Source: Minisyncoccota bacterium
GTDB lineage: Bacteria; Patescibacteriota; Minisyncoccia; Phycocordibacterales; SW-6-46-9
Direction: 5' to 3'
DNA length: 64,000 nucleotides
NCBI GenBank assembly: GCA_040905385.1
Contig: JBBDRP010000002.1
Coordinates: 595,403 to 659,402 of the forward strand
Positions 18,294 through 60,823 of this stretch are shown here, in pieces. The notes beneath the pieces are model-generated. The model saw nothing but the letters and a program-made list of their open reading frames with translations, had not been told where the DNA came from and did no database searches. Within the stretch, counting starts at the first letter, position 1; each line of letters starts with the position of its first letter. The translations under genes were made by a program, and so were the position numbers.

Positions 18294-18382
18294 GTATGTT
18301 TTATATTCAATGCATCTTTAAACCCAAAACTATTCGCACCGCCTGCCTGACGGCAGACAGGTAGCCGACAGCTCTAGCTGGC

Positions 18383-18566
18383 GTGGTACCGGGGTGGGCG
18401 ATTATGGCTATTTTCTAATTTCAGACATATAAATGTTATGTTTCCAACTAAATCATCAAACGACCACATCCCGCCGCGCGAAGCTCCTTTGTGCCTCCGA
18501 AGCTTTATGCGAAGGGGTATCGAGCGAAGTGAGGTGGGCTATAATTGCAATGTTTCTAATTTCCAT
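18383..18566. repeat. Two decayed tandem copies (~135-bp period) of the typA 5' end, start codon included
   Basis: Copies at 18393-18428 and 18533-18566, versus the genuine 18257-18293. Confidence 0.6.
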
Positions 18567-20131: not shown

Positions 20132-20464
20132 TTAACTATCCTCCTCATTATTACTGTCAGAAATCTCTTCACGGATCACCTCTGGATACTCGGGAAAGAA
20201 GGTTTGAATATCAGACAGCGCGAAGCTCGACATTATATCAGCCGAGGACTCGCGCTGCAGCAGGAAGGAGAAGCTTGCCCAGACAAATCTTTTGGGTGTT
20301 ACGGCTTCATCCGTAAGCTCCTGGTAATAATCTCGGGAAAGCGTCACAGTATGCTTCGTGCCGGCCGGCGTCTCGACTGCGAACTCCCATCCAGCATCGG
20401 TTTCCTTTTTATCTGTAATGGTGATTGGAGACATCCCCTCTATTATTACATACCCCAGTACCAC
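20132..20464 (-). CDS. Hypothetical protein
   Basis: 110-aa ORF in an operon-like arrangement with the nuclease. Confidence 0.35.
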   Translation of the reverse strand: MVLGYVIIEGMSPITITDKKETDAGWEFAVETPAGTKHTVTLSRDYYQELTDEAVTPKRFVWASFSFLLQRESSADIMSSFALSDIQTFFPEYPEVIREEISDSNNEEDS

Positions 20465-20565
20465 GTCAGCTAAAGCTGTCGGCTACCTGTCAGCCGTCAG
20501 GAAGGCGAGGCAAGAAGTTTCCACTAATCTCAGTAATAAGACTGAAGACGTGTTGGAAACATAAA

Positions 20566-32125: not shown

Positions 32126-32641
32126 TTAGTTGGCGACCGCCTGTACCGTCACATCAGCATTTTTCTGATCCGTATCAGTAGAGCTAGTTGGAGTAGTGAT
32201 CTCCAGATCAAATGTCTGAGTGCCGGAGGAAGCTATTGCGGTTGCTAGTGTTTGGTAGCTGGTGGTGAGGGCCGTCCAGCTACTACCGGTATCAGTAGAG
32301 AATTTATGAACATACTGATCAGCTGCCGGAGTTGCAGCTAGTGTCCAGTCCGTTCCACTTCCTGATGCAGCATTCTGACCCTGAATATTGAGATCTATGG
32401 TGGTGTTTCCATCGTTGGTGGCAGTCTGCTGGTCTCCGAGAGTTTGTGTGTCCTCGGTTGTACTAGCCGACAGTACACCGTAATCGATAGCCCCATCAGC
32501 AACAGAGACAGAGATATTCTGAAACTGCACCGTTGCCGCTACGGTAGCTGAGTCCTGAGCAACTGCATAAGAGGCGACCATTAGGCCGGCAATTATAGGA
32601 ATAACGAATAGTAAAGAGGTTTTTTGCATATACTGTTTCAT
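32126..32641 (-). CDS. Secreted surface-subunit-like protein (short paralog)
   Basis: Signal; about 120-aa domain shared with 32755..34176 (IDYG..TIDLNI.GQ..WTLAAT...DQYVH.FSTD.G..WTALTT..QTLAT.IA..GTQ.FDL....DVTVQAV). Confidence 0.45.
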   Translation of the reverse strand: MKQYMQKTSLLFVIPIIAGLMVASYAVAQDSATVAATVQFQNISVSVADGAIDYGVLSASTTEDTQTLGDQQTATNDGNTTIDLNIQGQNAASGSGTDWTLAATPAADQYVHKFSTDTGSSWTALTTSYQTLATAIASSGTQTFDLEITTPTSSTDTDQKNADVTVQAVAN

Positions 32642-32754: not shown

Positions 32755-34176
32755 TTACTGCTGTACGGCCTGCACCGTCACATCCACCGACTGCTCGGTG
32801 TCACAGGATGAATCGGTCGGTGAAGTAAGCTGGAGGTCAAAATCCTGGGTGCCGGCGGCGGCAATACCAGTAGCTAAGGTTTGATTGGTAGTAGTTAGCG
32901 CCGTCCAGACGCCGCCGCTGTCGGTAGAGAACTCATGCACATACTGGTCAGTACCAGCCGTGGCGGCCAATGTCCATGGACATGCGGTATCCTGGCCGAC
33001 AATATTAAGATCAATGGTGACGTCTCCAGTGTTAGTGACTGTCTGGGTATCTCCAAGCGATATGGTGTCATTGGTATTTCCGGCCTGCACCCCACCGTAA
33101 TCAATCGATCCGTCGGATACAGTAATGGAAATCGTGGCAGCGGTGGTAAAGGAGTAGCACAGCCCCGAATCGGTAAAGGTGCCGCTGCCGTCCGGATCCA
33201 GTGCCGAGGCCTCCCACCAGTACTGGGTACCAGCCGTTAAGGCATCGCCAGACTGGACGGTAAAATCTCCCTGCGTGCCAGATGTGTAGCAGCTGGTGGG
33301 GCTATTTGTACAGGTGGCATCGGTGCCGGCCCAGCCGGTGGAATCAACCGACTGATCATGGGTCTGTACCACGGTTGAACAGCCAGAATCCGAATAAATT
33401 GTAGTCTTGTAGCCAAGATTATCACCGTCCGGATCCGTCGTCGTCATCAGGAAATTCGGGGTTTTACTGACGTCAGTCGCACCATCAGTAGGCGCATCCT
33501 GGGATGGTGCATTCGGGGGCTGGTTGGGCGGTGTGTACTCAACCGTTACTCGCACCCGATACACGCTCACAAGCTGAGGTGGGCCTCCGGTATCTTTTAT
33601 GTACCGCAGTATGACCCCGAAATTTGCCGAGGTAACATCCGCCTGTGTCAGCCCAGCTCCCCACCCATCCGCAGATCCGCCGTAGGTTTGTATTGTCTTG
33701 GTTGTTTGTGATAGATTACCTGCTTTATTATCACCTACCCCGTTACTTCCATCAGTGGTGAGCTGAACCGTATCATCAGACACAGAAGTATCCTGGGTCA
33801 GCCACTCTACCTCAACCGTTACGCCATCAATTGTCGAGTCAGCGGGAATATCTGTGGATGTAAAGCCAAAGTTTGTAGCCGACAGCACACTGGTGAAGGA
33901 ACCATTTCCACCCAGGTCACAGGTGGTGGCCGTGTCGGTGGTATCGCCAGTGGCATTACCAATATTTTCCCAAGAACACTTATTTGTCACCACCTCCGTT
34001 GCCGTGCCGGTATAGTAGGTACTGGTCGTATCGGCGGAGGCAACCTGCGGCTGCGGCGGAATATCCGGATTCGAGGATAGCTGCGGCCAGCCGGAAAAGA
34101 TCCACAAAAGTGCGACTAATGTAGCTATTGCTGGGGTAAGATACTTCACGGTACATATTATACTACACATTTTCAC
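32755..34176 (-). CDS. Secreted surface-subunit-like protein (long paralog with a T/D-rich N-terminal extension)
   Basis: Signal; the C-terminal domain is homologous to the 32126..32641 product. Confidence 0.45.
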   Translation of the reverse strand: MKMCSIICTVKYLTPAIATLVALLWIFSGWPQLSSNPDIPPQPQVASADTTSTYYTGTATEVVTNKCSWENIGNATGDTTDTATTCDLGGNGSFTSVLSATNFGFTSTDIPADSTIDGVTVEVEWLTQDTSVSDDTVQLTTDGSNGVGDNKAGNLSQTTKTIQTYGGSADGWGAGLTQADVTSANFGVILRYIKDTGGPPQLVSVYRVRVTVEYTPPNQPPNAPSQDAPTDGATDVSKTPNFLMTTTDPDGDNLGYKTTIYSDSGCSTVVQTHDQSVDSTGWAGTDATCTNSPTSCYTSGTQGDFTVQSGDALTAGTQYWWEASALDPDGSGTFTDSGLCYSFTTAATISITVSDGSIDYGGVQAGNTNDTISLGDTQTVTNTGDVTIDLNIVGQDTACPWTLAATAGTDQYVHEFSTDSGGVWTALTTTNQTLATGIAAAGTQDFDLQLTSPTDSSCDTEQSVDVTVQAVQQ

Positions 34177-35010: not shown

Positions 35011-35046
35011 GAATAAGGCCAAAAGCTAAATAACTCACCCGGATGA
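35011..35046. terminator. Hairpin GCTAAATAACTCA-cccgga-TGAGTTATTTAGC, a terminator-like element that recurs at 56038-56069
   Basis: Perfect 13-bp inverted repeat; A4/T4 flanks. Confidence 0.5.
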
Positions 35047-35116
35047 GTTATTTAGCCCGTCGGTCGGTTCATAACCTTTACGAATTTTCTATCTTCTTCT
35101 TGGCGACCACCAGGAA

Positions 35117-48443: not shown

Positions 48444-48492
48444 ACCTTTATTATGACACGGCATTCGCTTGTTTACAGGCTGGTGTGTTTAT

Positions 48493-48726
48493 GCTACTTT
48501 TATTTTAGATTTCATTAATTTATACGTGCAGGGTTTGCTCAGTTACTGCCATGCTGTGATTTTCCTGCACGTCCTGAAGGTGGGGGTTCCGATGCACTCC
48601 ACCAGGTCGGCTGTCATTAAGACGGTCGACCTTTTTTATTTCCTCTCCAGCATCTGCTGGCGACGGACAATCGTAAACGTACCAACACACGAACCTACGC
48701 TAAATAGCGTGGGTTCATGCTTCTAA
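48493..48726. repeat. Copy A of a twice-occurring ~200-bp intergenic module (hairpin-rich candidate sRNA + remnant of the 3' end of the 51171..51479 gene)
   Basis: 48493-48650 matches 50900-51050 at about 75%; 48636-48700 encodes on the minus strand ...GTFTIVRRQQMLERK*, mirroring the C-terminus of the 51171..51479 product. Confidence 0.6.
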
Positions 48727-48746
48727 AATTTAATATAATCAGTTTC

Positions 48747-49706
48747 CTACTCAGCGTCATCACGAAGTGTTCGCTCCACACCTTCCTCCTCAACAGAGAT
48801 CATCACGTCATGATCTGCCCGCAGACGAGCTGTTAGTTGTGCAAAGATATTTTCATCAACCTTCTGAGCTAAGAAGCTGTACCACGGATAATCCACAGTC
48901 ACCTCACCATTACTGGTGGCTCGGGCTGTTGCTGTCGCTTGCGTTGGAATAAAACCAAACAAACGCAGACGTGTTTTGTAGCGCACCTCGGTCGTCTCCT
49001 TGTCAGACGCAATATCAACCACGTCTTCGTTATCTAGCGCAGCCGATGCTACGCGCAGACCAAAGTCATTAGCGGTAGTTATCTCACTCGCGGCCTGTAA
49101 TCGAGACCGGACTTCTTCCTTCTGCTCCTCGCTCCATCCACGAACATCATCACCAGAAACCCGAATAGAAACATCAGCGCGTGTTGGTGGTTGGTTTGTG
49201 TCATCGTCATCATCACAATCATCTCCTGTACACACATCACCACGGACGCGAATCTCTACCCCTACATTCTGCAGTGGACTGTTTTCATCAATTGAAAGGG
49301 CTTCTATGAGTTTTGGTGTAGTTTTGTCAATCCGCTTCCCGGCTCTGGAAGTGCCATCAATAATCCCATCGTCATCACTATCAGCATCATTCGGATCAAT
49401 GGCTGCTGAAGTAGTGCTGTTTGATCGAGCATCAGCACCATCCGCTGCCCGTACATCACTATATCCATCGCCATCGGTATCTCCGTCATCTCTGACCGTC
49501 GACCGGTTAGAGCGAGAATTGTTATAATTAGCCTCTTGCTGTTCCGATGTTTGCTCGTCATCAGCCGTATCTGTATCACCCTCACTACGCACCTCTGTCT
49601 GCTGCTGCGCTTCAACACGAACATCTGTCTGTGCCTGCGTGATAAATGCACCCGTCAGAAAAACGGCGATAGTAAGTGCGGTAGTTATGATTAGTTTATT
49701 TTTCAT
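48747..49706 (-). CDS. Secreted acidic protein with Asp-rich Ca-binding-like repeats (TSP type 3-like)
   Basis: Signal; DDGDTDGDGYSD, DPNDADSDDDGIIDG, CTGDDCDDDDD. Confidence 0.45.
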   Translation of the reverse strand: MKNKLIITTALTIAVFLTGAFITQAQTDVRVEAQQQTEVRSEGDTDTADDEQTSEQQEANYNNSRSNRSTVRDDGDTDGDGYSDVRAADGADARSNSTTSAAIDPNDADSDDDGIIDGTSRAGKRIDKTTPKLIEALSIDENSPLQNVGVEIRVRGDVCTGDDCDDDDDTNQPPTRADVSIRVSGDDVRGWSEEQKEEVRSRLQAASEITTANDFGLRVASAALDNEDVVDIASDKETTEVRYKTRLRLFGFIPTQATATARATSNGEVTVDYPWYSFLAQKVDENIFAQLTARLRADHDVMISVEEEGVERTLRDDAE

Positions 49707-49823
49707 ATAAATAGTATATTTAAATCCATTAATTAGTCTTCCTTTATAGTAGCACGTATCTACTCGGGTGTTATAGACTTACTGGATTTTTTCTGGATCT
49801 GCTAGCCAGTATGGAGTAACCAT

Positions 49824-49854
49824 CAAAAAACCCACGCCATGTGGCGCGGTTTTT
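49824..49854. terminator. Bidirectional intrinsic terminator
   Basis: AAAAAACCCACGCCatgtGGCGCGGTTTTTT. Confidence 0.55.
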
Positions 49855-49886
49855 TGAGTCCTTGATATCCTTTATCAGAACTAACT

Positions 49887-50738
49887 CTAGCGACTATCCA
49901 TTCCCGTGTTAACAAACTTAATACACAGCCCCTGGTTCTTGAAGCCGTAATCTTCCCAACCACCCTTCATACAGTCCTCTTTCGTCTGCGGATTCAGCTG
50001 ACCAACATGCCAATGGGCAGCATAATCTCCGTTATCAAGGTTCGGGAATGTATCTTCACCATAGTTGTAGCTGTTCAGGAAGAACTCACGTAGGAAGTTT
50101 TCACCACCTGGTCCGCGAGCAACCTCGTCACCGTTGATGTAGAAGACGTACTCTTCAGTACTGGTAGCCAACTCGATGCCAAGCGTTACCCACTCGCCGT
50201 AGGTAAAGTCGGTGTCAAGGTTAGTCCAGCCGTTGGCTGAATCCCACACACGCCAGCCCTCGTGATCACCTTCAGCTGAGTCACCGGAATCACTTGGTTC
50301 CAGATTAACAAACTCGATAATGCCAAACCAGTTATCGCGGTTTCCAGCACCTTCATCACCAACCGTCCAGAATCCAGCGCGAACGGCCTGGTCCTGCCAG
50401 TCCTCATCAATATACAGGTCAACCTGCATAGCTGTACCAAAGTTTTGTATTTCATCTGCAGCCGTCTTTATTCCTTCTGTACGCTGGAATGTCCCCGGTG
50501 CAGTTTCTGAACTATCAATACCAATTCGCGCCACGTCATCACGCGCAAATGCCGACACCGAAGTCACACCATCAGTCGGAAATGCACGATCCGCTTCCCA
50601 GTCATTATCAAGCTCACTTTGCGTAAATTAATCTAACATCCCGAAATGACTGCTAGCCGCCACATACCCCACTCCAAACAATAAGAGAGTGGCAATAGCG
50701 GCCACTGTCACGGTCGTAGATCGTAATGCTGTTGTCAT
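49887..50738 (-). pseudogene. Secreted beta-sandwich (lectin/glycosidase-like) protein gene with an in-frame TAA between the signal peptide and the mature domain
   Basis: ATG at 50738 encodes MTTALRSTTVTVAAIATLLLFGVGYVAASSHFGMLD, then TAA at 50628-50630, then the same frame continues FTQSELDNDWEADRAFPTDGV-TSVSAFARDD... (track ORF 49887..50567 starts at a GTG). Confidence 0.5.
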
Positions 50739-50899
50739 AAATTATAGTAATGTTATTAGTAAAGAACACTCTTGGTGGTGATTACAGCTCCACCGTACTA
50801 GTTATTATAGTACCTTTTAAGAAAGAAAGGGTTGTATTTGTGGAAAAAACAACTTCCAAGGTAACTACTCTGGATTTATTTACAACTGTATCTATTTTT

Positions 50900-51050
50900 G
50901 CTACTTTTGATTTAGATTTCATTAATTTATGCGTGTGGGTTTTCCTTGGTTATTCCCCTTTGGCTGAGGTTTTTCTGCACGTTGTAAGGTGGGGTTTTAT
51001 CTCCGCCTCACCGGGTCGGCTGCCGAATTCTCGGTAGTCGACTTTTTTTA
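50900..51050. repeat. Copy B (part 1) of the twice-occurring intergenic module
   Basis: Homologous to 48493-48650; ends in a hairpin + T7 (51020-51050). Confidence 0.6.
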
Positions 51051-51140
51051 TTTTCAAGCAAGCACTTCTGTGCTAAATTACACGCAGATCTGTACCACTT
51101 TCCTTTGAGCGGTAAGAGCCATACCTTGCTTACCGATCAG

Positions 51141-51172
51141 GGCCACCTGGTTGCACAGGTGGCCTTTTTTTT
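51141..51172 (+). terminator. Strong plus-strand intrinsic terminator GGCCACCTG-gttgca-CAGGTGGCC + T8
   Basis: Perfect 9-bp GC-rich stem, 6-nt loop, T8; no plus-strand CDS upstream, which suggests a non-coding transcript. Confidence 0.65.
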
Positions 51173-51479
51173 ATTTCCTCTCCAGCATCTGCTGGCGGCG
51201 GACAACTATAAATGTACCAACCCACGAGCCCATCACCAACGGCACGAGGTATAGAATATTTTCCGTAAACGAAAAGATTCCAAAAGCGATGATTATGTAC
51301 ACCACCGCGCCGGATGTCGCTGCCGCCACTGGGCGCTTGTCGGCCACGGCGCTCGTATAGTAGGTATTCAGAGCATCAATGACGATATACGCGATAAAAA
51401 TCAGCAGTGCAATCAAGAAACTGAACTCAGCCCACAGCACCGGCAGCGATACGTCGATAAAATGAGTTACGTAATCCAT
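51171..51479 (-). CDS. Small membrane protein
   Basis: 3 TM; the C-terminus ...GTFIVVRRQQMLERK is duplicated as a remnant at 48636-48700. Confidence 0.4.
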   Translation of the reverse strand: MDYVTHFIDVSLPVLWAEFSFLIALLIFIAYIVIDALNTYYTSAVADKRPVAAATSGAVVYIIIAFGIFSFTENILYLVPLVMGSWVGTFIVVRRQQMLERK

Positions 51480-51535
51480 GTCGACATTATGCCATAAGCT
51501 AAGTTCGGCTCGAGTTTTCGGCGGTCTCGTCTATA

Positions 51536-52261
51536 ATGGACAGCGCAGAGATACCGACACATATGGAAACAATGCCGCTACAAAAGTACCTCGCCCACAA
51601 TGGTTACGGCTCGCGTCGCGACAGCGAAGAGCTGATTCGTGATGGCCGCGTACTGGTCAATGGATCAGTCGCCGAACTGGGCGCCTACGTCGACCCGACA
51701 GACACCGTCGAGGTACCCGACTTCGTCCCCCGCGAGCCCGAGACCTGGGCCTTCTACAAACCCCGCGGAATTGTGACGGTAAATGCCCAGCGCGATAACA
51801 AAGAAATAGCCGACATCACTGACCTGCCCGATGATGTGGTGCCGATCGGCCGACTAGACAAAGACTCCGAGGGCCTGATTCTACTTTCAAACAACAGCCG
51901 CCTGCCGCAGCAGATCCTCGGCTCCGGTGTCGAGAAGGAGTACTTTGTCGAGGTAGACAAAAAGATCACCCACGGCTTCCTGGTCGAGGTTAGAGGCGGC
52001 GTCAGCATCAAGATTCCGGACCGTGGCGGCAATATGCACTGGTACACCACGAAAAAGACCAAGGCCCGCCGCACCAGCCAGACGAGCTTCGAGATCATCC
52101 TGACCGAAGGTAAGAACCGCCAGATCCGTCGCATGTGCGCCGCACTTGGCTACGGCATCCGCACGCTGCGACGCTTCCGCATCGGCGACATTCGCCTCGA
52201 CGGCCTCCAGTCTAGCGAGATGCGAAAGCTTGATTTAGATACAGAGGATAGGGTGTTTTAA
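51536..52261 (+). CDS. rRNA pseudouridine synthase (RsuA/RluB/RluF family)
   Basis: S4-like N-terminus (LQKYLAHNGYGSRRDSEELIRDGRVLVNG) and catalytic GRLDKDSEGLILLSNN. Confidence 0.8.
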   Translation: MDSAEIPTHMETMPLQKYLAHNGYGSRRDSEELIRDGRVLVNGSVAELGAYVDPTDTVEVPDFVPREPETWAFYKPRGIVTVNAQRDNKEIADITDLPDDVVPIGRLDKDSEGLILLSNNSRLPQQILGSGVEKEYFVEVDKKITHGFLVEVRGGVSIKIPDRGGNMHWYTTKKTKARRTSQTSFEIILTEGKNRQIRRMCAALGYGIRTLRRFRIGDIRLDGLQSSEMRKLDLDTEDRVF

Positions 52262-52847
52262 AGCTCGACTGCTTCGGTGTTATATAAGAAAAGAGTGTGC
52301 GAGGTAATAGACAAAGGCGCCGAGTGAACCCCACCAGCCGATGATGGAGATAATGAAGCTCGCTATAATCTTGTGCTGAAGTGGTTGCGGAAGCAGTTCT
52401 GTATCCTTTCCTTTCTTCTCTTGTTTGATGAGATACGGACTTACTACAAAAGACAGAAATAGACCGTTGAGTATCAGCACTACCGCGGCGATGGCATGCG
52501 TATACACCATCCACGAGACCGGCTGCGTACTGTAGAAAATTACGCCGCCAATAATACCCAAGGTGATACCAAGCCAAATGAGCGGCTTAGTTACCTTGTG
52601 CGCCCGGATGGTCGCTTTCGTCCAGTAACCGGACGTACGTGCTAAAAATCCATGCACATCAATCACCGTTACCGCTCCAAGGCCGATGATATAGCCGGCG
52701 AGAAGTATAAAGAGACCGATAAATTCTAAAGAAATATCTAGTGTCATGATTTTTTATTATAGCATTTCTTAAACTACAGCCCGCCGGTCTCCAGCCGGCG
52801 AGATACGCAAGCTGGATTTAGATACAGAGGATAGGGTGTTTTAAGGC
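52224..52847. repeat. 41-bp direct repeats (52224-52264 and 52807-52847) flanking a 540-bp insert that carries gene 52280..52747
   Basis: gaaagcttgatttagatacagaggatagggtgttttaaagct vs gcaagctggatttagatacagaggatagggtgttttaaggct; the first copy is the 3' end of the pseudouridine synthase gene. Confidence 0.65.
52280..52747 (-). CDS. Membrane protein (4-5 TM) carried on the insert between the direct repeats
   Basis: 155 aa, hydrophobic. Confidence 0.4.
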   Translation of the reverse strand: MTLDISLEFIGLFILLAGYIIGLGAVTVIDVHGFLARTSGYWTKATIRAHKVTKPLIWLGITLGIIGGVIFYSTQPVSWMVYTHAIAAVVLILNGLFLSFVVSPYLIKQEKKGKDTELLPQPLQHKIIASFIISIIGWWGSLGAFVYYLAHSFLI

Positions 52848-52905
52848 TTAAACTCTTAAATATCTGCAATAGAAGCAACTTTCATTGCTCTCCTGTACCC
52901 ATTGT

Positions 52906-54366
52906 TTATAAGGCTGAAGATGTGAAAATATCGCCCGATGGCAAGAACTCCAACCGATACTCGCGACCAAGTCCTCGAAACTCTTCGGATTCTTCATGAA
53001 TCAAAAGCGAGCTAAAATCCTCTTCCCACTTTACGCCGTCACAGCCCGAATCAAACGGAAATCCATTCAGCACAATCTGTCGCTTCTCTTGTGGGTTCAA
53101 AAGCAGTACCTCACAAGCCTCGCCGTCTTCAATCGTGTTAGCCACTGCCAACCATGGCTTGCCCTCGGTAACATCAGCCCCAAGTTCGCTGGTTGTCATC
53201 GGGTTATACTCACCGCCGTTGAAACGATCATGGGGTACAGTGATCGGCTGTATCTTCTGTTCTTCCGTATCATAAACCCGCATATTTTTACTATAAATAT
53301 TAACTAGCAGAGCGTGCTCATTATCAAGCCAGCGGATCATTCGGCCGGGGTTAGAAAACGTCTTGGCTTCTCTGGTAGTAGCATCATAAACAAATAAGTC
53401 TTCGCACAAACCATCTATAGACAGCTGGCTAGCATACTTTGTGTTATCTGGGGAAAATGTCCTTGGCGCACTGAAGTCATATGTGCAGACATTACTACTT
53501 TCAGCCAAAACCTCCCCAGAACTGTCACGAAATTGAACATACGTTTCGCCAGTTACTGAATTATCATATATGAAAAATTCACCATCAACGTCTGCTGATT
53601 TTGGCACCACAGTTAAGCCAGATGTACCCGGCCGTTGATTATTTCGGGACGCTGAACTTCCGCCATTGAAATGATACAGACGGCTTGCAGTGCCGGTAAA
53701 CTGCACATTGAAAATATCCGAATGCTCTGACACATCATACGTTACCGACGTTATCTCACCTTCGGCCGCTCGACGTTCTATACCACCCTGAATAATGGCC
53801 GGTGCACTTAGAAGATATCCCAAAAGCGGCCATATCATTATCGCCAGCACAGCTGCTAGCAACGAATGCATCACACGACTCTTGCTCAAGTACCGATACA
53901 CTGGAAGCAGCCACCAAGAGATGAGCCAGGACATCCCACCAGCAGTAATCATAGCAAAAAATGGAATGATGAAGAGAGCTCCTGCGAGACCACTTTGCGG
54001 AAATAGTGTGGCCGTAATGTCATTTCCGACCAAGCTAAAGAAATGACCGTAAAAAAGTAGAAAAGAACCAATTGTCATCAGTGCAGCTAGGCAGATAAAG
54101 AATCGTGTGTAACCATTCTTCCATCGCCGGCGAACATAAATAGCAATTGCAGAAACCACCACACCTATAGCTAGCAAAATCAACCCGGTAGTGAAGGCAT
54201 CTTCCAGCCCAACAAGATTCTCTACGAAAAATGGAAAGCCAAAGTAAGGTACGACAAAGGCTCCGATCAAAAAGATACCCACTACAATAGTGCGAACGAT
54301 AGGAAAATTAGCCTTGTCCGATTGATTGGCTAATTCCGGAGCCTGTTGTGCATCTGGTGTATTCAT
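52906..54366 (-). CDS. Large membrane protein: N-terminal polytopic domain + C-terminal beta-propeller-like periplasmic domain
   Basis: About 10 TM then a TolB/WD40-like low-complexity pattern (YDVSEHSDIFNVQF...VYDTEEQKIQPI...). Confidence 0.4.
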   Translation of the reverse strand: MNTPDAQQAPELANQSDKANFPIVRTIVVGIFLIGAFVVPYFGFPFFVENLVGLEDAFTTGLILLAIGVVVSAIAIYVRRRWKNGYTRFFICLAALMTIGSFLLFYGHFFSLVGNDITATLFPQSGLAGALFIIPFFAMITAGGMSWLISWWLLPVYRYLSKSRVMHSLLAAVLAIMIWPLLGYLLSAPAIIQGGIERRAAEGEITSVTYDVSEHSDIFNVQFTGTASRLYHFNGGSSASRNNQRPGTSGLTVVPKSADVDGEFFIYDNSVTGETYVQFRDSSGEVLAESSNVCTYDFSAPRTFSPDNTKYASQLSIDGLCEDLFVYDATTREAKTFSNPGRMIRWLDNEHALLVNIYSKNMRVYDTEEQKIQPITVPHDRFNGGEYNPMTTSELGADVTEGKPWLAVANTIEDGEACEVLLLNPQEKRQIVLNGFPFDSGCDGVKWEEDFSSLLIHEESEEFRGLGREYRLEFLPSGDIFTSSAL

Positions 54367-54425
54367 ATATTTATTGTAGCGTAGTTTTTGGTGTTACATA
54401 ATAGCTACTAGTAGCTATTTTATGA

Positions 54426-55043
54426 TTATTTATCTTGAGACAATTCTCTAAATTCAGCAATAATTTCATCCGGACCTTCCTCGCGAGCAATCTCCAGAGC
54501 ACGGAAATAATCGGTTGCCTCTTTATAAATTGTATCCTTAACATCAATATCAGGAGCCAAGTCACCGAGTATCCGTATCAAAAGCGCATAAATAATTATG
54601 TGATTCTGGGTCAACTTTGATTCATCTACCCATTTCTCGCGTACCTTACTCCAGTAATTTCCTACGCAGGGTACAGCTTCTCTGTCACCGGCAAACCGAT
54701 GTAGAAGCTCATGAATTACCAACTCCGTACGCTTGTCACGACCTTGCCCTTCCAGTGACATCACCGGCAGGATAAGTGGTGTCGACATAGCTCCCAATCC
54801 ACCACCAATCACAAAAACCTCAATATCACGTGGGTACGTAATACCAGTAATATCAATTATCTTTTTTATAACGGAGTCGTCTTTATTTATTTCAGACCAC
54901 AACTCTCGCCAAATCTGCACTTCCTTATTTACTCTTTTCTTACTTGGGTACCCTTCAAGATCTTTCCGCTTGAAAAGCTGCCGCCGATTACGATCCAGCG
55001 GATAGGCATACTTGAATACAACTTGTGGGATACGTTCTGACAT
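54426..55043 (-). CDS. Hypothetical protein with an HEXXH motif (possible metallopeptidase-like)
   Basis: TELVIHELLHRF. Confidence 0.35.
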   Translation of the reverse strand: MSERIPQVVFKYAYPLDRNRRQLFKRKDLEGYPSKKRVNKEVQIWRELWSEINKDDSVIKKIIDITGITYPRDIEVFVIGGGLGAMSTPLILPVMSLEGQGRDKRTELVIHELLHRFAGDREAVPCVGNYWSKVREKWVDESKLTQNHIIIYALLIRILGDLAPDIDVKDTIYKEATDYFRALEIAREEGPDEIIAEFRELSQDK

Positions 55044-55073
55044 ATACCCATTATGACATAGCTTACTTGGGTC

Positions 55074-55108
55074 TGTTATATAACAGATTTTTTGGTGTTA
55101 TATAACAA
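55074..55108. promoter_or_regulatory. Two tandem copies of the 12-bp palindrome TGTTATATAACA (operator-like) upstream of gene 54426..55043
   Basis: 55074-55085 and 55097-55108; a third copy at 57285-57296 and a near-copy at 52278-52289. Confidence 0.5.
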
Positions 55109-55123
55109 AATTTACGTATTATC

Positions 55124-55363
55124 TTAATCATCATATTTTGCTTCTGCCCAGGCTTTTATTTTATTGACCGTATCAAACCCATCACCATCAAGGTTATCAA
55201 CGAGATTTTTCAGCGTGATGGTGTACTCCATGCCGTCAGCCGTAAAATAAAATTTGTTTTTCGAATACTGAAACTGAACTCCGGCTTCAGCCCCGCTTAA
55301 ATTCTTCTCACGTGCTTCATCGTACATTTCCAGCAACGCCTCGGCCTTCTGTTTGTTATACAT
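55124..55363 (-). CDS. Small hypothetical protein
   Basis: 79 aa. Confidence 0.35.
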   Translation of the reverse strand: MYNKQKAEALLEMYDEAREKNLSGAEAGVQFQYSKNKFYFTADGMEYTITLKNLVDNLDGDGFDTVNKIKAWAEAKYDD

Positions 55364-55405
55364 ATTTTATGTAGTTATATTAAAACTTGTAGAATTTTGA
55401 TTCAT

Positions 55406-55927
55406 TTACATGTCAGAGCCGTCTTCAGAGACAGCTGCGCGTATACTCTCTGAGATACTGGCTACATCAAAGCTTCCGTGATTTTCAATACGTAGTAGCG
55501 GTAGACCTACCTCATCGAGAATCCGCTCAACCTCCTCATCACGGGCGATACGGTCTTTGCGACTGTGGCTTTTGTCATCTAACTCAATCACCAAACGTGG
55601 TGAAAGGTAATCTTTGTCACATAGTACAAAATCAACTGACTTACGATCAATATGAGCTAACGCGCCCTGCCAGTTTTGACCTTTCACTTTATGATCAATA
55701 ATTGTAGATAGATGTACCTGCGGAAAAATAACATAGTCATCCGCCACTGCATCCTGAAGCACATCGTAAAAATCATGCTCCGCTCGAGTCATGAAGTATT
55801 TCTTGCGCTGATAGTTATAGGATGCCACCTCTTTCTCTTTTCTCTTGCCTCCGTTCTCAATATACTGCTTCGCATATCCAATTAAAATAATAACCGCAAC
55901 GAGAACAAATATTGTAATTATATCCAT
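55406..55927 (-). CDS. DUF2726-like (restriction endonuclease-fold) protein with N-terminal TM
   Basis: FMTRAEHDFYDVLQDAVADDYVIFPQVHLSTI...IDRKSVDFVLCDKDYLSPRLVIELDDKSH...GLPLLRI matches the DUF2726 pattern from memory. Confidence 0.55.
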   Translation of the reverse strand: MDIITIFVLVAVIILIGYAKQYIENGGKRKEKEVASYNYQRKKYFMTRAEHDFYDVLQDAVADDYVIFPQVHLSTIIDHKVKGQNWQGALAHIDRKSVDFVLCDKDYLSPRLVIELDDKSHSRKDRIARDEEVERILDEVGLPLLRIENHGSFDVASISESIRAAVSEDGSDM

Positions 55928-56037
55928 GATTTAAGTTATGAACGTAACTAAATCATACCATCATTCTGAAGGCTTTCAGTGGCTAATACCTTGATATACG
56001 AATCTCTTGCCCTTATTTTAGGGCTAATATTAGGCTC

Positions 56038-56069
56038 GCTAAATAACTCAACCGGTTGAGTTATTTAAC
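56038..56069. repeat. Second copy of the GCTAAATAACTCA...TGAGTTATTTA hairpin (compare 35015-35046)
   Basis: GCTAAATAACTCAA-ccgg-TTGAGTTATTTAAC, overlapping the stop of 56061..56360. Confidence 0.5.
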
Positions 56070-56360
56070 CTCGTAGTGGACAGAGCGGCCAGAGGTGCCA
56101 ATCTGCTCGATTAGGTCCTCGGCTTCGAGCGCGTCCAAATATCGGGTCGCCGTCGCGTGTGATAAATCCAAAAGTGCCTCGACATCATCATTAGTGATAG
56201 TGTCATGATCATCCAGGTACGCGACCAGCCGCTCGATATTATCTTTCTTCTCTGTCTGGCTGCGCTGGATCAATGACGCATCTTCGCTGGCACCGTTAAC
56301 CTGCAAATATATGAGCGCACCACCAACCCCGACAATTATTCCCATGAGAAAGTAAAGCAT
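56061..56360 (-). CDS. Membrane-anchored winged-helix DNA-binding protein
   Basis: N-terminal TM (YFLMGIIVGVGGALIYL) + C-terminal wHTH (TNDDVEALLDLSHATATRYLDALEAEDLIEQ). Confidence 0.5.
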   Translation of the reverse strand: MLYFLMGIIVGVGGALIYLQVNGASEDASLIQRSQTEKKDNIERLVAYLDDHDTITNDDVEALLDLSHATATRYLDALEAEDLIEQIGTSGRSVHYEVK

Positions 56361-56375
56361 AATAATTTTATTATA

Positions 56376-56867
56376 TCAGTTTAAAATATTCCGAAATGTT
56401 TCTAACATTTTAGCGGAGAAGTCAGTTCTATAAAATATGCTTCTTTCACCGTATCTCCACCCTACCTTGTTGTCATTTCTCTCTAGTATTGGCAAAGCAA
56501 AGAAGCCGTATTTATAGTTATCATTCATCTTTTCATGTTTAGCAAGAGGTATCCTAACTTCTCTTATTTCTTGATAAAGAGAGTTGTATTCATCTTTATT
56601 GCCGAATGTCTTTAGTATTCGTAAGATCTCATTAGCATCTACTATCCATAGATAAGAATGATATACCAAATTATTTAACTTATATGGATCCGACTGAAAA
56701 ACATTTAGAGATGCATCTTGCTCACGGTGAATTAAGTCAGCATCAAATCGTCCTAAATTCTGAATTCGTGCCATTATATGAGGATCTGGAGAAGATGACT
56801 GATTAAAATCAGCGAACTCATGAGACAATTCTATCCAATATTTTTCTATTGTTTTTGGTTTATTCAT
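56376..56867 (-). CDS. Hypothetical protein co-transcribed with the TM-wHTH gene (15-nt gap)
   Basis: 163 aa, no recognised motif. Confidence 0.4.
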   Translation of the reverse strand: MNKPKTIEKYWIELSHEFADFNQSSSPDPHIMARIQNLGRFDADLIHREQDASLNVFQSDPYKLNNLVYHSYLWIVDANEILRILKTFGNKDEYNSLYQEIREVRIPLAKHEKMNDNYKYGFFALPILERNDNKVGWRYGERSIFYRTDFSAKMLETFRNILN

Positions 56868-56965
56868 TAAATTCTGTATGTGTCCAGCTTTTTATTTTAC
56901 TAACTTCATCGTAACCATCTCCCTCTAGCCAGTTTATCACCACAAACTCATGTTACTATTTACAT

Positions 56966-57172
56966 ATGGAAACTTCTCAAACCTTAAGCAAGTGGCTGAT
57001 TCGCGTCTACGTGCTGGCTATTCTGGTTATAGTAGTGGGCAATATTCTTGAGGGCGCCGTCTTTACGATCATCATTACGCTACTGGGTATACTGATAATC
57101 ACCCAGACATTCCTGCTGCCGAAGCGTAAAACTGAGCCGAGCAAAGAGAGCGAAGAAACAAAACACCACTAA
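56966..57172 (+). CDS. Small membrane protein
   Basis: 68 aa, 2 TM. Confidence 0.3.
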   Translation: METSQTLSKWLIRVYVLAILVIVVGNILEGAVFTIIITLLGILIITQTFLLPKRKTEPSKESEETKHH

Positions 57173-57346
57173 GCAACTAAACGAGTGGTGAAATGAAGAT
57201 CTCAACTGAGCGACACTCGATGTTGCACAGCTTCGAGAGATATCCCTAGGCTTTGGCCCAGGGATCTTTTAGCACCTCCTCGTCTGTTATATAACAAAAC
57301 TTTTTCTTAAGTGATCTCCTTTAAATATTAGAAACTTTGAGACTTA

Positions 57347-57811
57347 CTAAGCATTTACCCTGATTTTTTCTGCTAATGTAGCTAATTTATCATCAGAAAC
57401 TTTATCTGAGTCATGAGAAGATACGTATCCTGGATACCTTTCGAAGTACGTATTTATATCAGACTTTATTTCTCGCCATTCTTCCATATCAGCTGTTCCG
57501 TGCATTGGTACTAACTTGGCATGAAGATAATCAACGCCGAAACCCTCAAATATCATCCCAACTCTACCGACATCATCTAAACCATCTTCCAGTACTCGAG
57601 CCACCTTTTTAGCCGCCTTAATGAGAGAGAATAAAGGTTCATCATCAACCTCAGCAAAATAACTAGGTTGATACTGCTTCGGTATTAATACCGTAAACCC
57701 TTCCGTGTTTGGAAAAGGAGTAAGGAATGCTAGGTGATCCTCGTCCTCCCAAACCTTATAACAAGGTGCCTCTCCTTTTACTATTTTATGAAAAACTGTT
57801 TCTTGACTCAT
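57347..57811 (-). CDS. HIT-like (histidine triad superfamily) protein
   Basis: ETVFHKIVKGEAPCYKVWEDEDHLAFLTPFP...IPK and a C-terminal His cluster (DYLHAKLVPMHG); start placed at MSQ because the TAAAAT -10 box sits immediately upstream. Confidence 0.45.
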   Translation of the reverse strand: MSQETVFHKIVKGEAPCYKVWEDEDHLAFLTPFPNTEGFTVLIPKQYQPSYFAEVDDEPLFSLIKAAKKVARVLEDGLDDVGRVGMIFEGFGVDYLHAKLVPMHGTADMEEWREIKSDINTYFERYPGYVSSHDSDKVSDDKLATLAEKIRVNA

Positions 57812-57881
57812 AATTATTTTTTCCATTTTACCATCCACAGCCACTACAGAGAAAGATTGGCTTAGAAGCCTGTCATATGCA

Positions 57882-58121
57882 TTATAGAAGACCTTGAAAC
57901 TGACCGAGATAGCTATCAAGAAACATCGGTATCAGGATGACGGCCGCGATCAGCGGTATGACAACCATGGCGATGCTAACAATCATTGAAATCAGGAAGT
58001 ACTTGCGGGTCTTTTCGACTGATTGGTAAATATCATCAAGCCGCCGTGCATTCGCGGCAATCTGCTCGCGAACACTCCCGGGGCTTGGTGGGGTTTCGTT
58101 TGATTGATGCGCTTCATTCAT
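57882..58121 (-). CDS. Small membrane protein
   Basis: 79 aa, 1-2 TM; leaderless start 8 nt after a TAAAAT box. Confidence 0.35.
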   Translation of the reverse strand: MNEAHQSNETPPSPGSVREQIAANARRLDDIYQSVEKTRKYFLISMIVSIAMVVIPLIAAVILIPMFLDSYLGQFQGLL

Positions 58122-58187
58122 ATACCTATTTTACCATCTACATCAGCCTCCAATCTATTCAGTGATTTCTGGGTATTAGATATAAAT

Positions 58188-58541
58188 CTATTGGTTATTA
58201 AATTCTCTGAATTTAGCAGCATCAGCATCCCGACCCAAAAGCAACAGCGCCTGATTAAACAGCTTCTGGTCTGACAACACCGCTGGAGTCATACCGTTAA
58301 TCTTATCATCTACAGAATTCTTTTCCCTAAGATAGGAGTAGGTTTTTACGAGCCTGTCTGTGGCTTCGATGTCAGCATTCTCTGCCATTGAATTAGCCTG
58401 AGAAAGACTAGCTCGAGAAAACTCTAGCTCTGGGTTTACATCAGCCAGCTCTTCTATGAGCTCAACTGCTTCTGGAGCGAGCTCGCCATTCGACTTCTGA
58501 GGAGACTCTTCTCCGTTTGTAGGTTCTTCAAAATTTATCAT
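58188..58541 (-). CDS. Hypothetical protein
   Basis: 117 aa, acidic N-terminus. Confidence 0.35.
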   Translation of the reverse strand: MINFEEPTNGEESPQKSNGELAPEAVELIEELADVNPELEFSRASLSQANSMAENADIEATDRLVKTYSYLREKNSVDDKINGMTPAVLSDQKLFNQALLLLGRDADAAKFREFNNQ

Positions 58542-58610
58542 ATTGCTTAATTCTTATTAATTAACCTCTCTATTTCCTCTATAATATCTTTATTCCCTAT
58601 ACATTATATC

Positions 58611-58690
58611 TTACCATCCACACAGCACGTAAAGAAGTGCGACTGTGGGCGCAAGGCACACAGCCGCCGGGAATGTTGGCCAAAGAACAT
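58611..58690 (-). promoter_or_regulatory. Intergenic cassette copy 1: GC-rich imperfect palindrome (58637-58668) + CTTCTTT + GTGTGGATGGTAAGATATAAT promoter box
   Basis: About 85% identical over ~77 bp to copy 3 (59975-60046). Confidence 0.55.
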
Positions 58691-58774
58691 CCACCACCCG
58701 CACCCCTGTTTTGCAAGAAGCACGTCCTTGCAAATACATCACCCAAAAAGAAGCTGGACGGTGCGCATAGACCG

Positions 58775-59290
58775 CTACACTTCCACTATTTCCAGATCAC
58801 TCGTATCAATACTACCTTTGTAAAGAATGTGCGGTACGCGGACAAACAATAACGGTCGCTCTCCTTTTTGTTTCATTTCTTGATAATACTCCTTGGTTGC
58901 TTCGGGGAGCTGCGCATACTGCTCTATACTGTCTGGATTATACTGCGTGAAATTCTTTTTGTTCATCTTCAGCGCAGTGTCTTTGTATTGATAGAGATAT
59001 ACAACCGTCTTCTCCATATCAAGAGAATGTGGATTGATTACAAACGCTTTGAAATTTCTCTCTGTACTTAAGGCTTCCTTGATGTCTCTTGGATGCACAG
59101 CAGTAAGGTGAAGCACGTCATTCCAAAGGCAGTTTAAGAAAGGAATACGCTGTCGCATCACCGCTTCTCTCCCTTCGTATTTAGATTTTTCTACTTCGTA
59201 TCTATCTGGATACACATTCTTAAGCTCATTCAGAGGATAGAGGGCCTCTCCCTGCATATTTCTTGGAACAAAATGATAGAGATTAGACAT
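58775..59290 (-). CDS. Hypothetical protein
   Basis: 171 aa; leaderless-type start 7 nt after a TAATAT box. Confidence 0.4.
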   Translation of the reverse strand: MSNLYHFVPRNMQGEALYPLNELKNVYPDRYEVEKSKYEGREAVMRQRIPFLNCLWNDVLHLTAVHPRDIKEALSTERNFKAFVINPHSLDMEKTVVYLYQYKDTALKMNKKNFTQYNPDSIEQYAQLPEATKEYYQEMKQKGERPLLFVRVPHILYKGSIDTSDLEIVEV

Positions 59291-59297
59291 GCCCTTA

Positions 59298-59360
59298 TAT
59301 TACCACCCATAAAGAAGGCGGCTGTGTGCACAAAGCACACAGCCGCCAGGTATTTTTACC
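59298..59360 (-). promoter_or_regulatory. Intergenic cassette copy 2: perfect 13-bp inverted repeat GGCGGCTGTGTGC-acaaa-GCACACAGCCGCC (59317-59347) + TGGTAATAT extended -10 box
   Basis: The palindrome sits at the -35 position relative to the box; the ATG at 59290 follows 7 nt after the box. Confidence 0.55.
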
Positions 59361-59412
59361 GACTTTACTTTACAAAGTTACTGGATTATAATAGCTATGT
59401 ATCAAGACAAAA

Positions 59413-59447
59413 AGGGATCCGAACGGCCCCGTGCCTAAGGAGCCCTT
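59413..59447 (-). terminator. Intrinsic terminator of the NYN gene (hairpin + T5 on the transcribed strand)
   Basis: AAGGGATCC...GGAGCCCTT with an A5 run at 59408-59412 on the plus strand. Confidence 0.45.
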
Positions 59448-59449
59448 TT

Positions 59450-59962
59450 TTATTGCCTATACTCTATCTTTTTTCTAACATCCTTCTTATCAAGATGATC
59501 AAAGTACTCACTACCAAGACTTTTATACAAAGACGAAGAAAATTCAAGATTGGGAAAAAGAATCTTAGCTAATTCGTCACGTTTAATCAGAAAATCAACA
59601 AGCTTCTTATAATCTCCGTCACCAGATACAAGGATAATATTATCAAACTCAACGCCTTGAATGATTTTCTTCATGACTGAGAAGATGAGGTCTGAATCAA
59701 CATTTCCCTTCTTCTTGCCTTTGAGTGCAGACGAATGCTCACGAAACGACAAAATAAAGCCCGCCCGCTGCAGATTGTCGTACAAATCCTGCTCGCTTTC
59801 AGAAACATAGCCCATAAAATAGTAAGCCTCCTGGACATCATATTTATCCTTTAGATACGTGCGAAACTTACCGTAGTCAATCTTCCAGCCTTTCTCCTTT
59901 ACACCAAGATACAAGTTCTGACCGTCTATAAAAGCTAAATTGTTAGTATTTTTGTCGCTCAT
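59450..59962 (-). CDS. NYN-domain (PIN-like, LabA-like) protein
   Basis: LAFIDGQNLY...ILVSGDGDY pattern of NYN/LabA nucleases. Confidence 0.7.
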   Translation of the reverse strand: MSDKNTNNLAFIDGQNLYLGVKEKGWKIDYGKFRTYLKDKYDVQEAYYFMGYVSESEQDLYDNLQRAGFILSFREHSSALKGKKKGNVDSDLIFSVMKKIIQGVEFDNIILVSGDGDYKKLVDFLIKRDELAKILFPNLEFSSSLYKSLGSEYFDHLDKKDVRKKIEYRQ

Positions 59963-59974
59963 GTTGGTTAAATA

Positions 59975-60046
59975 TTACCATCCACACCTTCCGAAAAGAA
60001 GGCGGCTGTGGGCGCAAGGCACACAGCCGCCAAGAATTGGCCTAAA
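59975..60046 (-). promoter_or_regulatory. Intergenic cassette copy 3: GGCGGCTGTGGGCGC-aag-GCACACAGCCGCC (60000-60030) + CTTCTTTTCGG + GTGTGGATGGTAATAT
   Basis: Begins about 10 nt after the stop of 60056..60823 and ends 13 nt before the ATG of the NYN gene. Confidence 0.55.
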
Positions 60047-60055
60047 GCGACAGCA

Positions 60056-60823
60056 TCAGACACCTTCCGCCTTCATAAGTGAAAACGCGCCGTACAGACC
60101 CGACTGATCACCCAGCTTCGTCAACGCGGCTTTTATATCAAGTTTGCTTAAAGTCTCTTCGAAAGCAAGGCGAGGACACAAAGAAATGGCGACACCACCA
60201 CCAACTACCATAGTAGTAAAACTATAGTGTCGTGCGAGTCCTGGGACACACTGCGATACATCCTCTAAAACGACATCCCATTCGGCATTGGTGAGATCTT
60301 CGGCTAATTTACCGAATCGTGATTCAAGACTTTTCCCACCAATTTTTTCTTCGAGGTTATGCAAAGGTTGTTTATCCTCTGGTTGACTCACCGAAGCAAC
60401 CCCGCTCTGGCAAGTTACTTGTGCAAAACCAACACCAGTACCCCACGTAAGATAGACAAAATCCATCATCGCGTGCTCACCAAAATAGGCTTCTCCGAAT
60501 GCACCCATTTCTGCATCATTTCTTATATATACCGGGCAGTCGAACGTTTCGTCAAGCGTCGTTTGCAGCGGTTTATTCACCCAATCAGGCAGGTTTGTGG
60601 AACGAATGAGTTCACCGTCATCATTCACGCTACCAGGTACACCGATAGCAATTGCGTCAACCGACATACTGAGAGATTTAATTGTAGATACCATTTCCTC
60701 GATCCCAGTCGCAAAATCAAGTGGAGTTGGAAAGGTAACAGCGTCCTTAAAAGTGATCTTTTCAAGTGACGAAGCGGTAGCAATACGAGTATGTGTGCCA
60801 CCCATATCAATTCCAATAAACAT
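60056..60823 (-). CDS. ROK/BadF-type sugar kinase (glucokinase-like)
   Basis: MFIGIDMGGTHTRIA...VYLTWGTGVGFAQV ROK-like motifs. Confidence 0.55.
   Translation of the reverse strand: MFIGIDMGGTHTRIATASSLEKITFKDAVTFPTPLDFATGIEEMVSTIKSLSMSVDAIAIGVPGSVNDDGELIRSTNLPDWVNKPLQTTLDETFDCPVYIRNDAEMGAFGEAYFGEHAMMDFVYLTWGTGVGFAQVTCQSGVASVSQPEDKQPLHNLEEKIGGKSLESRFGKLAEDLTNAEWDVVLEDVSQCVPGLARHYSFTTMVVGGGVAISLCPRLAFEETLSKLDIKAALTKLGDQSGLYGAFSLMKAEGV

Follow-up and report, generated by a model that had tools for sequence, protein, structure and literature searches.

Gene gain at the 3′ ends of genes

Islands and prophages that integrate at the 3′ end of a gene leave a well-known footprint: the attL and attR sites form direct repeats that rebuild the end of the target gene. 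Examples are the islands that target tRNA and tmRNA genes, as well as SCCmec, which enters at the rRNA methyltransferase gene rlmH. In Acinetobacter and Streptococcus, homology-facilitated illegitimate recombination has been described in the course of natural transformation. The locus considered here lies in a 64,000-nucleotide (nt) stretch of contig JBBDRP010000002.1 from a Minisyncoccota bacterium (assembly GCA_040905385.1, positions 595,403 to 659,402), hereafter called the window. In this window, a unit of 513 bp with a single membrane-protein gene is found right behind the gene of an RluF-like rRNA pseudouridine synthase (hereafter rluF), bracketed by two copies of the rluF 3′ end. The locus is very probably an insertion scar with a displaced gene end.

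As in the 3′-end islands, a housekeeping gene whose product modifies RNA owes its live end to one of two direct repeats and keeps its reading frame, the core of the repeat lies at the extreme end of the gene and the site is variable. Unlike in these islands, there is no integrase, the cargo consists of one gene in 513 bp, the homology continues past the core, and a neighboring scar has an unrelated core. The gain of a foreign gene beside a conserved anchor gene is reminiscent of illegitimate recombination. The classical outcome of the latter, however, is the replacement or deletion of recipient DNA, whereas here a 70-nt duplication with a perfect core is observed. With integron cassettes the locus shares a single-gene unit of about 0.5 kb at a defined point, but there is no IntI, no imperfect palindrome of the attC type and no array; moreover, the unit has a putative promoter of its own and the flanking repeat is a coding remnant.

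A further system for comparison is the H47 island of Escherichia coli. Imperfect direct repeats of considerable length flank this island, which has no integrase; it excises and integrates independently of RecA, through exchange within segments of identity (PMC3191183, PMC5426353). The rluF locus likewise displays long imperfect direct repeats with identity segments and contains no recombinase between them, so that any mobility would have to use host functions. H47 is, however, 13 kb in size, has widespread attachment sites, and its excision and integration were shown experimentally, whereas the repeat described here is a gene-end duplicate.

The duplicated 3′ end of rluF

The direct repeat at the rluF 3′ end, which an earlier note on this DNA had put at 41 bp, is real and longer than claimed. 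In a gapped alignment, the two copies (Table 1) match over 72 columns with 86% identity and two 1-nt gaps, and a repeat finder pairs 52215-52265 with 52798-52848 (51 nt, 92% identity, spacing 583). Four mismatches had been reported, but the 42-nt string of the earlier reader contains three, and the fourth lies just upstream. The repeat includes a perfect 30-bp core, GATTTAGATACAGAGGATAGGGTGTTTTAA, which comprises the last nine codons of rluF and the stop codon. This 30-mer had no match in 100 shuffles, even when three mismatches were allowed, and none is expected by chance.

Copy 1 completes the live gene. When copy 2 is read in the rluF frame, it yields GEIRKLDLDTEDRVF followed by a stop, where the live gene has SEMRKLDLDTEDRVF followed by a stop. 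Further upstream, the frame of copy 2 is lost through a 1-nt deletion, and the similarity ends at about 52779. A glycine that is common to nearly all relatives is kept in copy 2, where the live gene has a serine, and copy 2 also retains a CTG leucine codon found in the three nearest rluF relatives (L001-L003). The C-terminal tail DLDTEDRVF is lineage-specific, the tails of relatives being quite different, and both copies should therefore stem from this lineage or from a very close one. Beyond the core, the copies remain similar for 38 nt into the coding sequence, with about 77% identity (about 20% divergence) and codon-structured, allele-like differences. Copy 2 is a displaced, decaying and dead 3′ end of rluF, and for the purpose of annotation the segment counts as a pseudogene fragment, not as a regulatory element.

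It was also considered that the repeat could be part of a longer conserved structured element, which the earlier note had named as a point that would speak against an insertion. Folding of both copies on both strands gave no significant structure (z = -1.5 to +0.6), and Rfam returned no match in the whole window at the gathering threshold, nor in 48.3-53 kb at E-values up to 1. This explanation was rejected. Copy 2 does contain a hairpin, CGCCGG-tctccag-CCGGCG at 52782-52800, which on the minus strand resembles a terminator, though not with a significant fold (z = -1.5).

The target gene shows the domain combination required of RsuA/RluB/RluE/RluF pseudouridine synthases, namely S4 (PF01479, 6.5e-09) and PseudoU_synth_2 (PF00849, 4.8e-14). 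It passes the general NCBIfam model TIGR00093 (score 120.3, cut-off 109.3), and the earlier label 'rsuA-like' is thus correct at the family level. The best-scoring NCBIfam subtype is the RluF equivalog NF007784 (23S rRNA pseudouridine 2604 synthase), although its score of 156.6 lies below the cut-off of 318. Homologs with 82-69% identity bear the JGI name '23S rRNA pseudouridine2604 synthase'. The true start of the gene is probably 51572 rather than 51536, to go by the 229-aa (amino acid) database entry P0001. Look-ups of the exact proteins, with the RluF of the window in its 241-aa form and with the membrane protein, gave no match.

As the sequence derives from a metagenome-assembled genome, an assembly artefact or a chance similarity has to be weighed. 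Logan assembled run SRR27977661 independently, and two of its contigs match the window at 100% identity over 51168-52717 and 52688-55217. These contigs do break at 51168 and at 52688-52717, which could point to an artefact, but together they span both repeat copies and both junctions, including the one at 52779. The junctions are not located at shared k-mers, and strain-switching in the assembly graph could therefore not have created them; an assembly chimera via shared k-mers was rejected on account of this and of the independent contigs. None of the 100 shuffles gave the 30-mer twice. Taken with the contigs, this makes artefact or chance hardly credible.

The Logan contigs overlap by exactly 30 nt (52688-52717) within the membrane gene, which implies a branch in the assembly graph. 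The same sample may hold either a second, near-identical membrane gene or a strain variant.

The inserted unit

The earlier note had described a single membrane-protein gene on the opposite strand between the two copies, and the list of open reading frames (ORFs) bears this out. The unique sequence between the repeats amounts to 513 bp and consists of the promoter region, the one gene and 18 nt. The gene is convergent with rluF, the 18 nt separating the two stop codons, and it is solitary in the window. For the encoded protein of 155 aa, AlphaFold predicts four long helices that form a confident membrane bundle (pLDDT 91). No significant or informative match was found when this model was used in a fold search of the PDB, and no Pfam or NCBIfam family was found for the protein. 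Homologs are nevertheless numerous: there are 2,877 of them, typically 60-71% identical, in Paceibacterota, Uhrbacteria, Magasanikbacteria and Peregrinibacteria. The invariant residues of the family include D30, H32, H50, W41-42 and N94. In the databases, the protein has been deposited as WD335_03330 and its 486-aa neighbor as WD335_03335 (metagenome-assembled genome of Candidatus Paceibacterota).

The genomic context of the family is a different one elsewhere. In all three other lineages examined (L004-L007, L113, L114), the family gene closes an ftsX-pyrG-AP_endonuc_2 operon, where it begins 3-5 nt past the preceding gene. None of these operon genes (ftsX, pyrG, AP_endonuc_2) is present in the 64-kb window. 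The gene seems to have its own promoter instead: a candidate extended -10 element, TGCTATAAT, can be read directly from the sequence in front of it, although a promoter scan based on two hexamers did not call it. If this is indeed the promoter, its location 8 nt before the ATG implies a near-leaderless mRNA.

The half-operator that the earlier note had mentioned between the copies, TGTTATATAAGA, is present, but its relevance to the insertion is doubtful. It is a one-mismatch copy of the palindrome TGTTATATAACA, which occurs in perfect form three times elsewhere in the window (55074-55085, 55096-55107 and 57285-57296), giving four sites versus 0.18 expected. The palindrome recurs throughout the clade in Paceibacterota, often in arrays that are phased by 22 nt. 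Sites were seen in relatives at L003:6696 and 6718, at L107:8472, 8494, 8516, 5950 and 8854, in L109 and at L005:5507. The pair in L003 straddles the rluF stop codon and makes a 38-nt hairpin, while in L005 a perfect copy is located 36 nt downstream of the homolog of the membrane gene. The palindrome may represent an operator array, a symmetric extended -10 element or an AT-rich terminator.

A variable slot behind rluF

In the three nearest relatives by RluF identity, rluF is followed by a DinB/UmuC-type polymerase gene (L001, 82%), a 144-aa ORF (L002, 76%) and a 160-aa ORF (L003, 74%). Since the downstream gene differs in each of them, the position behind rluF is a variable slot. The membrane gene and the second rluF end are absent in all three, so that the arrangement is not one shared by all relatives, the other point that the earlier note had raised against an insertion. 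A cargo gene that is out of its operon context, together with relatives that lack both gene and repeat, indicates an insertion into this variable slot. The synteny with the relatives is loose: pyrH is located upstream, and L002 and the window share a 79-aa gene with 86% identity. Repeats at the loci of relatives (L002, L107, L109) were examined as possible gene-end remnants and rejected, as they are repeated intergenic or promoter modules.

Before the insertion, the neighbor of rluF would presumably have been the 486-aa gene. Only two homologs of this gene exist (59% and 49% identity), neither of which adjoins rluF. At an empty site in the strict sense, rluF would be directly followed by the 486-aa gene, with GGCTTAAACTCTTAAATATC as the sequence next to the gene end. 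Such a site was not found in the databases, in which the closest rluF relative is 82% identical. A search of genome contigs with the RluF protein yielded only relatives of at most 49% identity, mostly from Actinomycetes or Acidimicrobiia, and a metagenome search with an alignment of close RluF proteins, in which universal motifs were chosen, only relatives of at most 47%.

The region downstream of the scar (52906-60823) has a GC content of 0.33-0.46, compared to 0.55-0.58 for pyrH, the FAD monooxygenase gene and rluF. Among its genes are DUF2726, a MarR-like gene, HIT and NYN as well as orphans, and the region looks like a variable, possibly acquired region that starts exactly at the rluF end.

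A second gene-end duplication

By comparison of the window with itself, a second gene-end duplication was found about 1 kb upstream of the first. It concerns the last ~60 nt of a 102-aa membrane ORF that is divergent from rluF. The remnant lies 2.5 kb away, and a perfect core of 31 bp covers the stop codon. A small-RNA-like element adjoins this scar and is itself present in two non-coding copies of ~155 nt that are 74% identical (Table 1). Together with the adjoining element, the copies bracket two ORFs, 48747..49706 (319 aa) and 49887..50567 (226 aa). The divergent 102-aa/rluF pair is flanked by two scars with unrelated cores within 4 kb.

The 30- and 31-bp cores share no motif. In a local alignment, 830 of 2000 shuffles score as well, and a recognition motif common to both cores was consequently rejected. 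That two neighboring scars have unrelated cores makes a single sequence-specific recombinase less likely. The differences cluster away from the core in either pair (the chance of the identical runs is p ~0.03 and 0.05). The duplicated parts outside the cores diverge alike, with 74-79% identity. Nine of the 13 differences are found at third codon positions (p = 0.009), and at least one copy must therefore have diverged under coding constraint.

This pattern bears on the possibility of homology-facilitated illegitimate recombination or allelic replacement. Linear DNA from a relative with the membrane gene convergent to rluF would have undergone homologous recombination in rluF, and its heterologous end would have been joined illegitimately to the resident rluF, at a point ~70 nt inside that gene. 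In this case the whole of copy 2 would belong to the resident allele, and the donor would have supplied the live 3′ end. In a variant with a single event, the block 48696-52778 (~4.1 kb), comprising the 319-aa ORF, the 226-aa ORF, the small-RNA-like element, the 102-aa ORF, rluF and the membrane gene, would have replaced the interior of a resident small-RNA-102aa-rluF locus and left both remnants behind. The remnants are indeed the two outer ends of the divergent pair, and they flank a block with the intact pair. The similar divergence of all duplicated parts outside the cores and the excess of third-position differences fit this scenario as well, as does the fact that the remnant-side copy of the small-RNA-like element is nearer to that of L001 (77%) than the internal copy is (70%). 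Uniformly diverged alleles are, however, unlikely to share perfect blocks of 30 and 31 bp in the fastest-evolving C-terminal tails. Furthermore, no relative was found in which rluF adjoins the membrane gene, the family being part of the pyrG operon in the lineages mentioned above, and the single-event version requires two illegitimate joints. Overall, this replacement is considered possible but doubtful.

A purely local origin would need no foreign DNA at all. Replication template-switching or break repair would have copied the membrane gene from another place in this genome into a staggered break at the rluF end, thereby duplicating ~70 nt; the distal copy would have decayed, and short-patch gene conversion or selection would have kept the last 30 nt. 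The third-position bias is what one selected and one decaying copy should produce, and copy 2 is frameshifted. Its GC hairpin could separate the 486-aa gene from the promoter of the membrane gene, as a terminator or insulator, but this hairpin is outside the perfect core and does not fold significantly. To have ~20% divergence in 38 nt beside none in 30 nt amounts to special pleading, the conserved 30 nt have no assignable function, and the same pattern occurs twice. Such an in-situ event is therefore very unlikely.

The small-RNA-like element (125-155 nt) also occurs once in L001 (1861-2047), where it lies 62 nt ahead of rluF on the strand of that gene. It displays three conserved hairpins with four base pairs supported by compensatory changes, a terminal hairpin and a T-run, and Rfam gave no match. 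The element may act as a small RNA, or as a leader or attenuator of rluF. Only its copy A contains a 123-nt insert (51043-51165), which is flanked by 22-nt direct repeats (TTTTTTTATTT...). The insert holds two hairpins, one of which is a strong terminator on the plus strand, GGCCACCTG-gttgc-CAGGTGGCC, that is followed by T8. Speculatively, the insert could have arisen by the same integrase-less process as the scars.

Search for an integrase or mobile element

Recombinase domains were searched for in the ORFs between 40.7 and 64 kb of the window, at least 10 kb on either side of the locus. No recombinase, transposase or phage domain was found among them, in agreement with the earlier statement that no integrase is present; the neighboring genes include an FAD monooxygenase, DUF2726, HIT, NYN, ROK, Macro and pentose-phosphate enzymes. 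The 64-kb window has no tRNA gene. The 30-mer core has zero matches in IMG/VR, the region has none in phages, and the protein of the membrane gene has none in plasmids or IMG/VR. A transposon, an insertion sequence or a miniature inverted-repeat element was rejected, as there are no terminal inverted repeats and the duplication is imperfect and ~70 nt long, versus 2-15 bp. An integron gene cassette does not fit, as neither an integrase in the ORFs between 40.7 and 64 kb nor a significant fold of the repeat was found.

The earlier note had proposed a site-specific integration into the gene 3′ end. The insertion at the 3′ end and the displaced gene end hold, while the site-specific island is not supported: no recombinase was found within at least 10 kb on either side, the insert has one gene in 513 bp, the similarity extends beyond the core, and an unrelated core lies next door. 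A relic of classical site-specific integration would imply that a tyrosine or serine integrase joined an attP that mimicked the rluF 3′ end, with the 30-bp core as the att core. Either a later deletion would have removed the integrase together with the remaining island, or the unit would be a satellite mobilized in trans. Such an event is classically marked by direct repeats at the 3′ end of a gene, a restored frame and a perfect core at the very end, all of which are seen here, and the slot downstream of rluF does vary among relatives. An att core with unrelated arms would look otherwise, however. Identity is not confined to the core here, as the codon-structured similarity reaches 38 nt upstream of it, and at the second scar ~160 nt on the other side. 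The sole ORF of the insert is not a recombinase gene but a widely conserved, normally operonic gene of Patescibacteria. With the lack of a motif common to the two cores and of any viral, phage or plasmid match, such a relic is an unlikely explanation.

The proposed route

On the best reading, the locus is a recombination scar and not an autonomous mobile element. It is fairly ordinary, and there is no sign of self-mobility. As for how it arose, a homology-guided single crossover without an integrase, using DNA of a related lineage, is tentatively preferred, with something short of an even chance. The incoming DNA would already have borne a ~70-nt rluF 3′ fragment beside the membrane gene. A single Campbell-type crossover within the 30-bp perfect block, catalyzed by the recombination functions of the host and not by an element-encoded integrase, would have inserted the promoter-equipped 513-bp unit right after the rluF stop and duplicated the ~70-nt gene end. 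Copy 1 would then complete the live rluF, and copy 2 would end up beside the old downstream neighbor, the 486-aa gene. The same process would have occurred independently at the 3′ end of the neighboring 102-aa gene. For this route we infer a circular or concatemeric intermediate, as well as the position of the crossover and the donor from a related lineage.

The pattern fits host-mediated recombination best because of the homology beyond the core, the perfect block of ~30 bp, the missing integrase and the two independent cores. Perfect blocks with clustered differences are what is expected if strand exchange selects for a minimal segment of identity. Natural competence, demonstrated experimentally in Saccharibacteria, another Patescibacteria phylum (PMC10633639), speaks for the single-crossover route, and it also counts for the illegitimate replacement discussed above. 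The H47 island provides a precedent for recombination within identity segments of long imperfect repeats in the absence of an integrase. As the two copies still share 30 bp of identity, a precise loss of the insert without damage to rluF would still be possible.

Several points weigh against the single crossover. Neither a donor nor an empty site nor an excised circle was seen, and with the closest rluF relative in the databases at only 82% identity, the state before the insertion is a reconstruction. The 583-bp circle is an ad hoc intermediate. The clustering statistics given above are modest. Since a selected and a decaying copy from one in-situ duplication would give a similar third-position bias, this bias is no proof of two alleles and does not discriminate among the mechanisms. 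A trans-acting recombinase may be encoded elsewhere in the 784-kb contig, beyond the 64-kb window, and the genome may or may not retain a native copy of the membrane gene.

Features and other repeats of the window

The features of the locus are collected in Table 1.

Table 1. Coordinates of the features at the rluF locus and the second gene-end duplication (positions in the window)
Feature	Position	Strand	Remarks
RluF-like rRNA pseudouridine synthase gene (rluF)	51536..52261	+	Insertion target; S4 + PseudoU_synth_2
Direct repeat copy 1	52194..52265	+	Final 68 nt of rluF with the stop codon, followed by 4 nt of downstream sequence; core 52232-52261
Direct repeat copy 2, pseudo-3′ end of rluF	52779..52848	+	Core 52815-52844; in frame for GEIRKLDLDTEDRVF and stop, frameshifted upstream
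Inserted cargo, 155-aa four-helix membrane protein gene	52280..52747	-	Sole ORF between the repeat copies
Candidate extended -10 promoter TGCTATAAT	52756..52764	-	Inside the insert, 8 nt upstream of the cargo ATG; read directly from the sequence
TGTTATATAAGA, one-mismatch copy of palindrome TGTTATATAACA	52278..52289	.	Overlaps the cargo stop codon
486-aa gene of unknown function	52906..54366	-	Convergent with rluF; presumed rluF neighbor before the insertion
Live 3′ end of the 102-aa membrane ORF (51171..51479)	51167..51230	-	Second gene-end duplication
Pseudo-3′ end of the 102-aa ORF	48632..48695	-	GSCVGTFTIVRRQQMLERK and stop in frame; 89% identical to 51167-51230
Small-RNA-like element copy B	48488..48641	+	Three hairpins + T-run; adjoins the second scar; copy A at 50895-51053

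Other repeated sequences occur in the window. An intergenic module is present in three copies between consecutive minus-strand genes (58604-58684, 59311-59356 and 59968-60045, minus strand). It is composed of a GC-rich terminator hairpin, GGCGGCTGTGTGC...GCCCACAGCCGCC, with TTCTTT behind it, and of TGGATGGTAATAT further on, a sequence similar to an extended -10 element. Similar repeated promoter modules are also found in relatives. The 171-aa ORF at 32126-32641 (minus strand) is 60% identical to the C-terminal 123 residues of the 473-aa gene directly upstream (32755-34176, minus strand) and, by this similarity, appears to be a tandem duplicate of the 3′ portion of that gene. Two tandem paralogs (12882-13793 and 13799-14737, minus strand) share 47% identity over ~307 aa. 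A 69-nt inverted repeat with 86% identity (20452-20520 and 18327-18395) is situated in intergenic or promoter regions 2 kb apart, and similar perfect palindromes of ~30 nt are located 21 kb apart at 56040-56067 and 35025-35056.

Significance for Patescibacteria

Gene gain and reshuffling are poorly documented in the tiny genomes of Patescibacteria, in which few mobile elements can be recognized. The rluF locus adds a further case of an already known footprint, from a phylum with little record of such events. It offers a base-level example in which a conserved membrane gene has left its operon context and stands, with a putative new promoter, behind a housekeeping gene, accompanied by a datable pseudo-3′ end. 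The 155-aa family itself is a conserved unknown across several Patescibacteria phyla and is worth characterizing.

In a broader sense, Paceibacterota, and perhaps Patescibacteria generally, might move promoter-equipped units of one or a few genes from the 3′ end of one conserved gene to that of another, with no integrase dedicated to the task, using ~30 bp of identity as the address and leaving a pseudo-3′ end behind. This generalization is speculative and, on present evidence, quite improbable. If the insertion were to prove polymorphic or excisable in reads, it would point to an integrase-independent shuffling of genes by short homology; if not, the locus would be a well-preserved scar.

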